Positions 3,128-9,987 are shown, counted from the first letter of the stretch. The stretch is 10,301 nucleotides of DNA from Candidatus Hodarchaeota archaeon (GCA_016839815.1 JAEOTM010000086.1:1-10301); one strand, 5' to 3'. Notes: generated by a model from the sequence alone, not told the origin. A program made the numbers and translations.

Positions 3128-3271
3128 ATGAATAGAAAAACGTTCATTATCGCTTTAGATGATTCTTTAAAAGTAAATTGTCAATTCGAGTCTTTTCTTT
3201 ATACTGTTAAGATAACTAACTTTTTACCAACACATATATGTTCAAAAATGGGAGAGGGAATAACTAAATGA
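3128..3271 (+). CDS. Possible 47-aa small ORF translationally coupled to the Zn-finger gene
   Basis: MNRKTFIIALDDSLKVNCQFESFLYTVKITNFLPTHICSKMGEGITK*. Preceded by TAGGT. Its TGA overlaps the next ATG (ATGA, 3268-3271). No recognisable domain. Confidence 0.2.
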   Translation: MNRKTFIIALDDSLKVNCQFESFLYTVKITNFLPTHICSKMGEGITK

Positions 3272-3606
3272 GTGATAAAACGACTATATATTGGGAAACA
3301 AAATATCCAGAGTTACAAAGCTTAAATACGAGTAATAATTCATTACGAAAGCGCAATGAATCCGATATGACAGTACTGGGGAATTTTTCAGTAAATATCA
3401 TTGATTTCGTGCCTTGTCAAAAATGTGGCATAATTCCTGCTGCATATTGGAAATGTCGAGAGTGTAGTAGCGTTGAATGTTATAATTGTTTGATTAAACG
3501 TCATAAATTACGACGGGGAGCGTATCAATTCAAATGCTCTTGCGGATCTTCTAATCTTTTTTATAAACATAATATTCTTACAATTCCCTTTGCTTTTAGA
3601 ATATAA
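3268..3606 (+). CDS. Small Cys-rich zinc-finger protein (B-box/RING/ZZ-like binuclear finger)
   Basis: 112 aa with C50-x2-C53-x9-C63-x2-C66-x4-C71-x2-C74-x4-H79 and C90-x-C92. SD-like GGGAGAGGG upstream. Confidence 0.75.
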   Translation: MSDKTTIYWETKYPELQSLNTSNNSLRKRNESDMTVLGNFSVNIIDFVPCQKCGIIPAAYWKCRECSSVECYNCLIKRHKLRRGAYQFKCSCGSSNLFYKHNILTIPFAFRI

Positions 3607-3701: not shown

Positions 3702-4544
3702 CTATCTGTCTCGTTTTTTCCTAAAAGGAAGGATGAAGAGTAGAAATCCGAAAATGACTATCGTAAGGCCTTGAAAAGACGCTGAGGTCTTTGTAGGCTC
3801 AGGATTGTTCGTGATTTGAAATTGATCTGAAATATCGATGAAGAAATAACCATTGGAAGTGTAAGTTCGTAACATGAGACGATAGTGATTTCCGTCAGCG
3901 ATATTCGTGGTATTCCAATCATAAGATGTAGTTGTTAATCCCATTACCAATAGCACCCATGTGTTACTATCATCCGAAGAATAATACAAATCATAGTAGA
4001 TGTCTTCGTCTCCAATACCCATCAGTTCATTCCACTGGATAGTTATTGTACCACTAACATTTCCACCGCTTGGGAAAATAAAAACAGATGCAATAATGGG
4101 AGGGATATTATAGGGGATTACAACAGGTACATCATCATAGTTTCCTCCAGAAATATAATACGGGTTATCTACAATTCCATCGATATCAAAATCAGGGATA
4201 ATCCATTCATTCCAGTAATTGTACTGGAAAAGGTTAGCTTCTCCGTAATCACTTGCTTGGGAAAAATAGTAATAAGGAGCCATTGGACTATATTCGATAA
4301 AATCGTCCGCATTGTTACCAATAAAATTATTGGAACGAATAGTATTCGATGTCGAACCCGTAGAGAGATGTACTCCGTAGAGCCCGTTTATCATGATAAG
4401 ATTTCCTGTGATCGAATTTCCTGTTGAACGATGAAGAAGAATACCATTTTGTCGATTTTGGCTGATGATATTCCCGCTTATCTCTGAATCTGCATTGTAA
4501 TAGAGAGCTATCCCGATATCTGAACTACTAAGGTCTAAGAGAAG
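3702..4544 (-). pseudogene. 5'-truncated cell-surface protein: NosD/CASH right-handed beta-helix, Ig-like domain and C-terminal anchor (ORF track gives 3702..4394)
   Basis: The frame stays open 50 codons upstream of the called Met and continues the beta-helix repeats (DIGIALYYNADSEISGNIISQNRQNGILLHRSTGNSITGNLI-MINGLYGVHLSTGSTSNTIRSNNFIGN) until TGA at 4547-4545. That extension has no ATG/GTG/TTG and no signal peptide. NYWNEW..PDFDIDGIVDNPYYI is the typical NosD-type C-terminal cap. SGTITIQW..YDLYYS..YDWNTT is an Ig-like module. The protein ends in a TM helix and RKKRDR. Confidence 0.75.
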
Positions 4545-4623
4545 TCATAGGAGGAATTGTTTTTACAACACAGCAGATAATGAACTCCATAGTTTTTTGA
4601 AGGGGAAAGGGATAGGTCTAGGA

Positions 4624-5577
4624 ATGAAATCCCAACGACAGTATAATATCTTGGTGATAGGAGGAGGACCAGCAGGAATAGCGGCTGCGCTTTATAGTGC
4701 CCGAAAAGGATTGGTTACTGGGATTGTAGACAAAATGAGTATTGGGGGAACGGTTGCTCATGGAGCAGTAATTGAAAATATCCCTGGGTTAAATGAACCA
4801 TTATTAAATTATCATTTTTGGGAAAATAGTCAAACAGAACTAGAAGATGCTGGAGTACATATTCAGGAAATATTGGAAATACTACATATCTCAACCGAGT
4901 CAACTCCATTTCAGATTACTGGTTTTCATTATCCTGAAGAAATAAAATTTACAGCAGATGCGATTATTTTAGCTACAGGGGTTTCCCGACGCATATTAAC
5001 TGTTTCAGGAGCGAAAGAACTGGAGGGACGGGGAGTTTCATATAGTGCTACATGTGATGGGCCTCTGTATAAAAATCGAAGAATCGCAGTCATTGGTGGG
5101 GGAAATTCAGCAGCCTGTGATGCCCTCTTTCTTGCAGAAATACCATGTAAGATCTCTCTGATTTTCCGTTCTTCTCGTTTAAGAGCTGATGAGAGGTATC
5201 AAACTGCGATTAAGGCGTATAAGAATCTTACACTGGTAAACAATACGATCGTTACTGCGATTCACGGAGGAGAAGTAGAGGGAGTACAAGCAATAAGTAT
5301 AAAAAACCTAGAAACAGGGGATGAGAGTAAACTGAGAGTTAGAGGAGTCTTTGTTGCGATTGGCACGATTCCTGAGATCTCCCTTCCCAAGAAGCTAAAT
5401 CTTCCGTTAACAACAAATGGTTATGTGCAAACAGATCCCAAACAGCGAACCTCGATCCCTGGAATTTATGCAGTCGGAGACCTGACATCAGGTTCAGGGC
5501 ACATCTTAGTGGCCATGGGAGAGGGGGTTCGTGCGGCAATGACGGCTCATCGTGACTTGAGGAACATTGGTAAATAA
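4624..5577 (+). CDS. Thioredoxin reductase-like FAD/NAD(P)H oxidoreductase (TrxB family) with atypical SxxC active site
   Basis: FAD motif VIGGGPAGIAAA, IENIPG, IILATG, GRGVSYSATCDG, NAD(P)H motif VIGGGNSA, GVFVAIG and TSIPGIYAVGD. ATG at 4624 is preferred over TTG at 4597 because it gives the usual TrxB N-terminal length and has a purine-rich sequence upstream. No trxB symbol is given because the dithiol is incomplete. Confidence 0.9.
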   Translation: MKSQRQYNILVIGGGPAGIAAALYSARKGLVTGIVDKMSIGGTVAHGAVIENIPGLNEPLLNYHFWENSQTELEDAGVHIQEILEILHISTESTPFQITGFHYPEEIKFTADAIILATGVSRRILTVSGAKELEGRGVSYSATCDGPLYKNRRIAVIGGGNSAACDALFLAEIPCKISLIFRSSRLRADERYQTAIKAYKNLTLVNNTIVTAIHGGEVEGVQAISIKNLETGDESKLRVRGVFVAIGTIPEISLPKKLNLPLTTNGYVQTDPKQRTSIPGIYAVGDLTSGSGHILVAMGEGVRAAMTAHRDLRNIGK

Positions 5578-5592
5578 AGAGGAACGATTGAT

Positions 5593-6129
5593 ATGGTATC
5601 TTTAATGACTTCTGATGATGAAGAAAAATGTACTGATATTGTAAATATTGTAACACAAATGTACCAGAACGATAAAACTCAGAGATGGACACATCTCGGA
5701 TCTGGATTATATGATATTCCGGTATTCATTCATAAAAAACTCTTTAGAAGTAAATACACCGATATCTCTAAAATAGTCAAAAGAGAATACAATTTATACA
5801 AGGGATTAAAGAAAAAAATTCTAGAAACTGAATTAAAACTCTATCAAGGACTTTTAAGTGGGAGACCTTCAATTCTCAGCCGTTCACTGTCGTTAATAGC
5901 ACTAGTACTATCCTTAGTAGCAGTAATATTCAGTCTTACATCTAACAATGCCACAGAAAGCACAGTAGAAACAATGATTGTTGGGTTATTTCCTTATATC
6001 ATGACCATGCTTATCCTACTTCTAGTTGCAGGAATTATCGGATTAGGTCAAGATAGATTATCTGTCAGAGAGCATCACATACGGATTATCGTTCTTTCGT
6101 ACCTACTGGCTAATAGTAAGAAAAGGTAA
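5593..6129 (+). CDS. Hypothetical membrane protein: soluble helical N-domain and two C-terminal TM helices
   Basis: 178 aa, starting 15 nt after the TrxR-like stop, with SD-like AGAGGA (5578-5583). Hydrophobic segments SLSLIALVLSLVAVIFSL and MIVGLFPYIMTMLILLLVAGIIGLG. Basic tail. Confidence 0.8.
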   Translation: MVSLMTSDDEEKCTDIVNIVTQMYQNDKTQRWTHLGSGLYDIPVFIHKKLFRSKYTDISKIVKREYNLYKGLKKKILETELKLYQGLLSGRPSILSRSLSLIALVLSLVAVIFSLTSNNATESTVETMIVGLFPYIMTMLILLLVAGIIGLGQDRLSVREHHIRIIVLSYLLANSKKR

Positions 6130-6226
6130 CTCGATAAGTAGCCATTCCAGTCGAACTATTCTAATTGTGCATTAGACGACGTTAACATGATTATTTGTTT
6201 GAGATCTTCTCTCAATTTCTCATTAT

Positions 6227-7572: not shown

Positions 7573-8574
7573 ATGAATTCCAAGGAAAGAGTACTTTTAG
7601 CACTAAAACATCAAGAGGCCGATTTTGTTCCGTTATTTGAGGCTTGGATTGAACAAGAAATCTTGGATCAGTTTCATGGAGATCCTTTTTCAACTAGACT
7701 CCACCTTGGAATGGATTGTCTTCCATTAGGCAGTCATCCCATAACTACGAAAGCATATAGAACTGGTATTGATGAATGGGGACGAATTTTTCAGGATGGA
7801 CATTACAGTGGCGGTTTAGTTAAGACATTTCAGGATCTAGAGAAATATACCCCTCCACTTTCTCATGCAGCTGATTGGTTTCCTCCTTCAGAAGTAAAAC
7901 GTCTTAAAACAACATATGGGGAAGAATATGCACTTTTTTATGCCTGGCATGATTGCTCCTTAGGACTAGCTTATTTATCAATGGGAATGGAAAACTTCTT
8001 CCTTGCATGCTATAACGATCTAGATCTTGTTAAAGCAGTCATTGAAAGAAGCACCTTATGGACAATTGCTCTGGTTGAAGAAGCTGTCAAGAATGGTGTT
8101 GATTTTATTGTGTTAGGAGATGATGCTGCTGATAATGACCGTCCTCTAATTTCTCCAAAAATGTTTCAAGATTTAATTCTTCCTGAATATAGAAAAATTA
8201 CTAAAAAGTGTCCAGTGCCTATTATTTGGCATAGTGATGGCAATATTGAACCTCTCCTACCTTTTATTGTAGAGGCCGGTTTTTCAGGTGTTCATTCTTT
8301 GGAGCCTAAGGCTGGAATTGATTTACTTAAGATCAAACAAACTTATGGTACTTCTCTTGTTCTTGCTGGCAATGTTGATACTACTTTTGTACTCTGTCAA
8401 GAGAATATGGATCTTGTGAGGGAAGATGTTAAACGAGCGATTCACCAAGGAGCATCAGGGGGTGGTTTTCTGTTTTCTTCTGCGAACAGTTTATATCTTG
8501 GACATAAAATTCGTGCAATAAAAGAGATGTATCGTTACGCGCGGGAGATTGGAGAATATCCAATTAAGTTCTGA
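7573..8574 (+). CDS. Uroporphyrinogen decarboxylase superfamily protein (MtaA/CmuA-like cobamide methyltransferase-type, not true HemE)
   Basis: MNSKERVLLAL...DFVP start, DEWG, MGMENF, GDD, PLISPKMF..LILP, WHSDGN, GNVD and GGGFLFSS. Lacks the RQAGRY motif of HemE. SD AAGGAG upstream. Confidence 0.9.
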   Translation: MNSKERVLLALKHQEADFVPLFEAWIEQEILDQFHGDPFSTRLHLGMDCLPLGSHPITTKAYRTGIDEWGRIFQDGHYSGGLVKTFQDLEKYTPPLSHAADWFPPSEVKRLKTTYGEEYALFYAWHDCSLGLAYLSMGMENFFLACYNDLDLVKAVIERSTLWTIALVEEAVKNGVDFIVLGDDAADNDRPLISPKMFQDLILPEYRKITKKCPVPIIWHSDGNIEPLLPFIVEAGFSGVHSLEPKAGIDLLKIKQTYGTSLVLAGNVDTTFVLCQENMDLVREDVKRAIHQGASGGGFLFSSANSLYLGHKIRAIKEMYRYAREIGEYPIKF

Positions 8575-9174: not shown

Positions 9175-9987
9175 ATGTGTACAAGAGAGGATATCGAGAA
9201 ATGTTTGAAATTATGTATAGAATCTTATAAAGAAGATATAGAGGTACCAGGGTTTGAAGTGTTAGAGGGGGGAAAAATGGAGAGTCCTAACTGGGGACTC
9301 AATGCGTTTGTTGGAAAGATTGATAATGATACGTTTGTCGTAGTATTTAGAGGGACCGATGATTGGAAATCTGCTATAGCTGATCTTAGGTTTGTTTTTA
9401 AAAAGAAGCTTCCTTATGGACCAGGATATGGAGATAAGCAGGTACATACTGGATTCATTGATGCTTATTTAGAAGTTCAATCCAAAATACTTCTACTGTA
9501 TTCAAAAGAACTGTCTCCAAAAGTCCTGATAACAGGACATAGTTTGGGGGGCGCAATTGCAACTCTCTGTGCATTAGATCTACAATACAAGCAAGAAGAT
9601 GGTTCTTTGAAAGATGAGAAATCCCCAGAAAAACTCCAATGCATTACTTTCGGTTCACCACGAGTGGGAAATAAGGCTTTTGTCGAAAGTTATAACAGGC
9701 GTGTACCACACACATGTCGAGTGGTCAACGGGAACGATCCAGCAACTCACTTTCCTAAGATCTCCTTTCAGTTACCCTTCAAACTTAAGAAAAAATTTCT
9801 TCGGTGGCCAATTTCACCATATCGACATGTCCACAAAAAACTCCGATTAGGGAAAAGGCCCTTGTTATGCGCTCTTTTTGTACGCATAACAAGTCTTTTT
9901 TTCTTCCTTAAAAGATGTGGAAAGGATCATGATCTAAAAGAATACACGAAGGGATTAAAGAATCACATTTTCCCTAATGAATCCTGA
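9175..9987 (+). CDS. Class 3 lipase (Lipase_3, alpha/beta hydrolase)
   Basis: VVFRGT (oxyanion/lid region), VHTGF, nucleophile elbow TGHSLGGA (S123), TFGSPRVGN, RVVNGNDP (D188), YRH and DH (H252). SD-like AGGGGT upstream. No signal peptide. Confidence 0.93.
   Translation: MCTREDIEKCLKLCIESYKEDIEVPGFEVLEGGKMESPNWGLNAFVGKIDNDTFVVVFRGTDDWKSAIADLRFVFKKKLPYGPGYGDKQVHTGFIDAYLEVQSKILLLYSKELSPKVLITGHSLGGAIATLCALDLQYKQEDGSLKDEKSPEKLQCITFGSPRVGNKAFVESYNRRVPHTCRVVNGNDPATHFPKISFQLPFKLKKKFLRWPISPYRHVHKKLRLGKRPLLCALFVRITSLFFFLKRCGKDHDLKEYTKGLKNHIFPNES

Follow-up and report, generated by a model that had tools for sequence, protein, structure and literature searches.

A one-cysteine, thioredoxin reductase-like flavoprotein encoded in a Hodarchaeota genome, and the small family to which it belongs

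The window (the whole stretch of DNA analyzed here, 10,301 nucleotides) is one contig, C29, of a Candidatus Hodarchaeota archaeon assembly that comprises 4.24 Mb in 206 contigs and is 89.5% complete and 7.8% contaminated. A gene on its plus strand, whose product we call P0001, encodes a thioredoxin reductase (TrxR)-like flavoprotein that has serine at the position of the first cysteine of the redox motif. An earlier reading made from the sequence alone had placed this protein in an intact open reading frame of 326 amino acids beginning at the first TTG. The frame is intact, but ATG 4624 is a likelier start than TTG 4597, because a homologue with 73% identity (P0002) begins there in the alignment; the protein then has 317 residues. 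Residues are numbered here from ATG 4624, and adding 9 gives the numbering of the sequence-only reading. The features used below are as follows.

4597 to 5577, plus strand: open reading frame counted from the first TTG
4624 to 5577, plus strand: gene for the one-cysteine TrxR-like flavoprotein (P0001, 317 aa), recognized by Pfam, TIGRFAM, PDB sequence and AF2 matches
4660 to 4677, plus strand: FAD-binding GGGPAG (residues 13 to 18), read from the translation and nearly invariant in a 60-sequence alignment
Residues 41 to 44 of P0001, from the translation: GGTV
4807 to 4809, plus strand: Asn62 (AAT), a derived residue of the one-cysteine family; the canonical residue is Gly
5044 to 5046, plus strand: Ser141 (AGT; S150 in the earlier numbering), at the first-cysteine position of CxxC
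5053 to 5058, plus strand: Cys144-Asp145 (TGT GAT), the retained flavin-proximal, interchange cysteine and the acid-base aspartate
5095 to 5118, plus strand: dinucleotide-binding GGGNSAAC, with GGGNSA intact, including Cys165 (TGT at 5116 to 5118)
5164 to 5187, plus strand: FRSSRLRA (residues 181 to 188), a degenerate form of the 2'-phosphate motif HRRDxLRA, with R182 invariant
5500 to 5502, plus strand: His293 (CAC), where canonical enzymes have a conserved Gln
5593 to 6129, plus strand: 178-aa protein with two transmembrane (TM) segments and no Pfam family, beginning 15 nt after the P0001 stop

The two-TM gene and the P0001 gene are probably cotranscribed. The two-TM protein carries a conserved RWTHLGSG motif at its N-terminal end and two TM helices at its C-terminal end, and just three distant homologues were found among 5.8 billion clusters. 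Their identities (74, 51 and 43%) run parallel to those of the P0001 homologues, and an orthologue is absent from 23 other genomes of the order, as is the case for P0001; because of this parallel and this shared absence, the comparison suggests that the two genes are coinherited. With a single, nonconserved cysteine, the two-TM protein makes no obvious thiol partner. The other neighbors in the window encode an SBP_bac_5 protein, a small Zn-finger protein, a surface protein, a short-chain-dehydrogenase-type (SDR) protein, a URO-D-like protein and a class-3 lipase, and these genes around P0001 gave no clue to a redox partner or substrate. The small Cys-rich, Zn-finger-like ORF (3268 to 3606) has weak B-box/UBR hints (E ~0.1), and the lipase (9175 to 9987) matches PF01764 with an E value of 1.7e-31. 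Orthologues of the URO-D-like gene (7573 to 8574) with 58 to 79% identity are present in 17 of 21 congeneric genomes, and the contig therefore belongs to the genus. In the closest relatives, the genes surrounding the URO-D orthologue are not syntenic with this neighborhood. One URO-D-like orthologue of a congeneric genome (G049:C7:19517-20509) carries a single in-frame TAA, which could mark a pseudogene or reflect misassembly.

The translation bears out each of the motif readings made previously from the sequence: SATC at the active site, GNSAAC, FRSSRLRA, GGTV and a His in place of Gln. The active site reads GVSY-S141-ATC144-DG, with S141-A-T-C144 where TrxB requires CxxC (CATC). P0001 also departs from the NADPH signatures as defined in PMC5627308, GGGxxAxE and VxxxHRRDx[F/L]R, having GGGNSAAC and SLIFRSSRLR, respectively; the Gly-rich loop, R182 and R187 are retained, and the alterations are H181F and R183S. 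GGGPAG and GD of the FAD site are preserved, as are GGGNSA and R182 of the dinucleotide site, and the FAD domain contains no cysteine at all.

Despite these substitutions, Pfam and structural comparison agree that P0001 has the two-domain FAD/NAD(P)H fold of TrxR. Pyr_redox_2 covers residues 7 to 301 (E 1.3e-43), and thioredoxin reductases supply the best PDB sequence matches (2Q7V at 1e-52, 3F8P, 3CTY and 4ZN0), with 1f6m_A the top-scoring E. coli TrxR chain. An AF2 model built from a 60-sequence alignment (pLDDT 95.8, pTM 0.91) superimposed in Foldseek on 1F6M_A, in the FR conformation, with a TM score of 0.92 and an rmsd of 1.7 Å; it matched the other FR-state structures 3CTY and 5MH4 at TM 0.90 and 0.89 and FO-state structures at just ~0.6. 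The TrxB equivalog model TIGR01292 scored 258.6 bits, below its cut-off of 343.45. Several neighboring families were also compared with P0001. Membership in the CoA-disulfide reductase (CoADR)/Nox/Npx group was rejected on a TIGR03385 score of 53.9 bits against a cut-off of 578.8 and on the cysteine-free FAD domain, and membership in the YpdA/Bdr bacillithiol-disulfide reductases was rejected on a TIGR04018 score of 69.3 bits against 339.9. P0001 lacks the marks of the TrxR-like ferredoxin/flavodoxin-NADP+ reductases (FNRs): Cys144 is kept, and the closest relatives are TrxRs, not FNRs. The NAD(P)H-independent TrxRs (TRi, FFTR/DTR and DFTR) show the reverse pattern; in P0001, GGGNSA is intact and CxxC is lost.

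The one thing in favor of a misread or misassembled normal trxB, or of a mutation private to it, is that AGT and TGT are one base apart. We regard this explanation as having a negligible chance of being right: independent contigs agree on the codon, the first cysteine is missing as well from relatives that are 73, 58 and 51% identical to P0001, and a separate canonical trxB exists in the genome. Comparison of window positions 4400 to 6200 with contigs from public marine-sediment runs gave one contig from another run (X2, 212 nt) that covers 4985 to 5196 with zero differences, including AGT at 5044, and one from a different study (X4, 378 nt) that covers 4914 to 5291 with 37 differences (~90% identity) and retains AGT5044, TGT5053 and TGT5116. 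The 31 differences listed of these 37 comprise 19 synonymous and 12 nonsynonymous changes over 93 codons, giving pS of ~0.26, pN of ~0.058 and a pN/pS ratio of ~0.22 from this single low-depth contig. A ratio this far from 1 argues against the relaxed selection that had been named as a way of refuting a repurposed enzyme, and as judged from that one low-depth contig, the P0001 gene is under purifying selection.

A first homology search with P0001 returned three close relatives only, followed by a gap to canonical CxxC enzymes at 39% identity. The closest of the homologues is annotated "Candidatus Hodarchaeales archaeon." The three relatives, with their identity to P0001, active-site motif and other motifs, are the following.

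P0002 (MHA1978832.1): 73% identity; SATC; GNSAAC and FRSSHLKA
P0004: 58% identity, N-terminally truncated; NAVC; YRSSSLKA
P0003: 51% identity; SSTC; HRQDRLSA

A profile of P0001 to P0004 searched against 1.84 billion cluster representatives added P0121 (SAIC) and P0246 (NATC), and a further profile search added P0283 (LATC-A), P0288 (VATC-A) and P0325 (DVTC-N), which were found amid ~115 canonical CATC enzymes of Heimdall/Hodarchaeales origin. With the clade profile, contigs of metagenomes yielded one weak, partial match, and a scan of genome contigs returned canonical bacterial and archaeal TrxRs only (≤38% identity). The profile matches also included P0226 (SVRC), and one-cysteine variants of TrxR may arise repeatedly. 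Fourth in the profile search ranking was P0123, a 1,427-aa protein with two TrxR-like modules (CALC and CGLC).

A maximum-likelihood tree groups all ten one-cysteine sequences in a single clade (SH-aLRT 99) that lies within the radiation of canonical TrxRs of the Hodarchaeales; for an earlier tree, which included seven of these ten, monophyly was not rejected by an AU test (p 0.518). The residue at the first-cysteine position varies among the ten (S, S, N, S, V, S, L, D, N and N), and the position is thus unconstrained. The second cysteine, in contrast, is present in 10 of 10 sequences over a tree length of ~5 substitutions per site; it is the sole cysteine of the P0283 protein, and it is invariant in 60 of 60 aligned TrxRs, where the first cysteine is nearly invariant outside the one-cysteine members. 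The tree and the aligned sequences show that the first cysteine of CxxC was lost once, in a duplicate of the lineage's canonical TrxR, and that the position drifted afterwards. Asp145 is kept in 7 of the 10, the remaining three having A, A and N.

The truly clade-specific changes include C141S/N and G62N (N in 9 of 10 family members and G in all 40 canonical sequences compared). Others are confined to the four-member subclade of P0001, whose stem is long (0.81): Y53I, E130A, E166D, R183S/Q, E189D, Q293H/N and F309H/Y, together with a 4-residue insertion at 100 to 103. Position 183 reads S/S/Q/S in this subclade, and the members outside it keep the HRR motif except for P0246 (HRG). Position 293 reads H/N/H/H, compared to Q in 39 of 40 canonical sequences. 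The earlier suggestion that several of the unusual motifs covary needs to be divided. FRSSRLRA (through R183S) and Q293H are indeed clade specific, but the departures from GGQL and from the Glu of GNTAVEE belong to the background of the lineage, whose canonical TrxR already reads GGLA and GGGNSAVT-E. Since it reads so, Cys165 replaces a variable Thr and not the conserved Glu.

This distribution bears directly on the earlier proposal of a relocated redox pair, C144-C165 (C153-C174 in the earlier numbering), in place of the CxxC disulfide. Cys165 is new with respect to the E. coli enzyme, and P0002 and the X4 variant keep it. It occurs nowhere else in the clade, where T (P0003), L (P0004), V or M stands at that position in all other members, including the six outside the subclade; the lineage's canonical enzyme has its variable Thr there, and the model places Cys165 in the first helix turn past the GxGxxA pyrophosphate loop, off the CxxC helix. 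The relocated pair is thus very improbable. Of the expectation that SATC and GNSAAC together would mark a conserved clade, the first half held, in that loss of the first cysteine defines a ten-member clade, while the second half failed with the restriction of Cys165 to P0001, P0002 and X4.

The host genome contains a canonical trxB at C149:60892-61803 (CATC, HRRDQLRA), as had been proposed for a check; its product is 43% identical to P0001, and with this gene present, P0001 was free to diverge. The same genome also encodes a second CATC enzyme (C206), a Grx-fused enzyme (C9), an FNR-like enzyme and three ordinary thioredoxins (Trx). A conserved clade, a pN/pS ratio of ~0.2 and a separate canonical trxB together uphold the earlier view that P0001 is a repurposed paralogue, as opposed to the product of an error or of a private mutation. 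A second one-cysteine paralogue lies at C158:3483-4538 and has GVSY-N-ATC-DG with HRRDCLRA kept; it carries an insertion of ~30 residues in the FAD domain, shared only by P0246 among its relatives, and the gene runs off the contig end. Elsewhere in the genome, at C148:4872-5018, a membrane-anchored, TlpA-like thioredoxin-fold protein has W-A-Q-P-C, with the first cysteine changed to Ala, and is another redox protein that has the second cysteine only; its paralogue at C19 has a normal WCQPC. A short aromatic tail, ...GGDWYGKE, with Trp in 19 of 20, closes the canonical TrxRs of the genus and those of many other archaea (L002 1483-2436 and L009 to L027). This tail, which recalls the flavin-stacking C-terminal Trp of FFTR/DTR, is missing from the P0001 subclade.

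For P0001 and the NATC paralogue alike, the best match in each of the 21 other species genomes from this genus was the canonical CATC gene, with 41 to 45% identity to P0001 and 58 to 66% identity to the C-terminal half of the C158 paralogue. No orthologue of P0001 was found in 82 other genomes of the class, and none of the C158 paralogue was found in 23 other genomes of the order. Of the 22 species genomes of the genus, one thus carries the P0001 family, and the known family members are all singleton clusters from metagenomes. As far as these searches extend, the one-cysteine family is real but rare and patchy.

Rarity of this kind would be no surprise in a duplicate that is dispensable or short-lived, and P0001 could accordingly be a decaying or neutral pseudo-enzyme with no selected function. 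The patchy distribution, the long subclade stem (0.81) and the degenerate NADPH motif are what one would expect of such a gene. Intact reading frames in ten diverged sequences, the pN/pS ratio of ~0.22, the invariance of Cys144 and the cofactor motifs and the confident AF2 model (pLDDT 95.8) are not, and we judge this explanation to be quite improbable. The evolutionary pattern of the family, tiny as it is, is clean and unexpected for a TrxR.

In textbook accounts, low-Mr thioredoxin reductase works with two cysteines. The sequence-only reading held that its first cysteine attacks thioredoxin and that P0001 had therefore lost the substrate-attacking thiol. This assignment is reversed: according to Veine 1998, as cited by Valette et al. 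(PMC5627308), C138 of E. coli TrxR receives the electrons of the flavin and is also the residue that starts the interchange with thioredoxin. Consistent with that account, the sulfur of Cys138 lies near attack distance from C4a and that of Cys135 lies farther away (Minjarez-Saenz et al., PMC12796991). Because C138 is both the flavin-contacting and the interchange thiol, the residue lost from P0001 is the partner, or resolving, cysteine, not the attacking one. By this alignment, P0001 retains the chemically central thiol and lacks only its disulfide partner. An engineered SxxC FFTR has residual DTNB reactivity only (PMC12796991), and canonical activity is for that reason not expected from P0001. 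A large-scale classification describes TrxR homologues with two cysteines (TR) or with none (FdR) (PMC5627308). A full-text literature search for a natural SxxC or single-cysteine TrxR lineage returned engineered mutants only. To our knowledge, single-cysteine low-Mr TrxRs have been known only from the laboratory, as mutants constructed for the trapping of intermediates.

We therefore weighed what a TrxR scaffold with one active-site thiol might do. P0001 could still belong to the thioredoxin system, forming a C144-Trx mixed disulfide that an external thiol or partner resolves and serving as a slow reductase, a trap or a regulator. Its putative docking elements would suit such a role: P0001 and the canonical TrxR of its genome have the same G[R/K]G element as defined in PMC5627308 (GRG at 135 to 137) and the same CDGPLY, the latter being the lineage's version and not the FF of E. 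coli. The host has its three ordinary Trx genes to offer as partners. 1F6M_A, on which the model superimposes (TM 0.92), comes from the TrxR-Trx complex trapped with the engineered E. coli C135S enzyme, which forms just such a mixed disulfide. However, no resolving thiol is conserved anywhere in the one-cysteine family, and a Trx-bound enzyme would be unable to return to the flavin, which leaves such a cycle no obvious turnover. The near inactivity of engineered SxxC FFTR (PMC12796991) and the lack of a Trx gene adjacent to P0001 weigh in the same direction, and we consider a role within the thioredoxin system improbable.

A different possibility is a thiol-independent NAD(P)H:acceptor oxidoreductase (acting on ferredoxin, flavodoxin, quinone or O2) in the style of the TrxR-like FNRs, in which the retained cysteine would only tune the flavin, for example by thiolate-flavin charge transfer. 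TrxR-fold enzymes without CxxC are known to act as ferredoxin/flavodoxin reductases (PMC5627308), P0001 has weak sequence matches to FNR chains (E 1e-16 to 1e-18), Asp145 is dispensable in three family members and the profile matches included three TrxR-like proteins (P0164, P0199 and P0260) that lack both cysteines. However, the known FNR-type members lose both cysteines, and here the second is kept in all ten sequences while its neighbor drifts. P0001 is also far nearer to TrxRs (E 1e-52) than to FNRs, and in the AF2 model it stops directly past the last helix, without a C-terminal extension. We find this explanation plausible but unlikely, if clearly less so than a place in the thioredoxin system.

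The P0001 family probably does a different, single-thiol redox job. The reading that we prefer, to which we give slightly less than an even chance, is that P0001 is a functional, Hodarchaeales-specific one-cysteine TrxR paralogue that uses a monothiol mechanism centered on Cys144 to act on a small substrate. Without a partner cysteine no internal disulfide could form, which would make thioredoxin turnover by the normal relay impossible, and a mixed disulfide with a protein would be barred from swinging back onto the flavin. The Cys144 thiolate would instead take up, by itself, a small oxidized species of sulfur or oxygen, giving a mixed disulfide, a persulfide or a sulfenate; the swing of the NAD(P)H domain would then place Cys144 on the flavin (the FO state), and FAD reduced by NAD(P)H would reduce the adduct directly. 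Such a scheme would reach the logic of CoA-disulfide reductase and NADH peroxidase on a TrxR scaffold. In the P0001 subclade, the FRSS that replaces HRRD and the Q293H change near the flavin suggest a shifted donor preference or flavin potential; the site contains no acidic residue of the kind typical of NADH sites. Replacement of the acid-base aspartate in 3 of 10 members (A, A and N) is odd for thiol-disulfide chemistry and counts against our preferred monothiol reading. The more specific proposal, that the Hodarchaeales one-cysteine TrxRs have turned the dithiol relay into a CoADR-like monothiol reductase of (per)sulfides, mixed disulfides or peroxides and constitute a new class of flavoprotein, we offer only tentatively.

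Were the monothiol reading true, a naturally selected lineage that retains just the cysteine nearest the flavin would show that the rotating TrxR scaffold supports monothiol chemistry, and an uncharacterized redox enzyme would be added to the Hodarchaeales, the archaeal lineage closest to eukaryotes. The family would also be a ready natural system for probing Cys138 acting alone. Its members have been annotated automatically as "thioredoxin reductase (NADPH)" or "NAD(P)/FAD-dependent oxidoreductase," and the first of these labels is almost certainly wrong for the one-cysteine proteins.

Among known systems, the closest is the canonical TrxB of the same genome, which shares with P0001 the two-domain fold, the FAD and GGGNSA motifs, the putative docking elements, the second cysteine and the aspartate. 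P0001 differs from it in having Ser for the first cysteine, FRSSRLRA for HRRDQLRA, G62N and Q293H, in lacking the C-terminal GGDWYGKE tail and in falling below the TIGR01292 cut-off. The SxxC arrangement itself is identical to that of two engineered enzymes, E. coli TrxR C135S (1F6M) and Gloeobacter FFTR C135S. Those enzymes are nearly inactive laboratory mutants used for trapping intermediates (PMC12796991), whereas the state of P0001 is natural, inherited and selected. YumC-type FNR (the "FdR" of PMC5627308) has likewise abandoned the CxxC disulfide on a TrxR fold, but it lacks both cysteines and is distant in sequence (E 1e-16 to 1e-18), and the P0001 family strictly keeps one. DvTRi, FFTR/DTR, DFTR and the T. 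acidophilum TrxR resemble P0001 in being lineage-restricted TR1 duplicates with a changed 2'-phosphate motif (PMC5627308), and 3CTY is the best structural match of the P0001 model in the comparison with the NAD(P)H-independent TrxRs. These enzymes keep CxxC and change the electron donor; the P0001 family, in contrast, keeps the dinucleotide site and changes the dithiol. The chemistry proposed for P0001 is closest to that of CoADR, NADH peroxidase and NADH oxidase, in which one flavin-adjacent cysteine goes from a thiolate to a mixed disulfide or a sulfenate and back, with FADH2 as the direct reductant. Those enzymes belong to another branch of the superfamily, carry the cysteine in the N-terminal FAD domain and undergo no domain rotation, and the likeness of P0001 to them would be one of analogy and not of membership.
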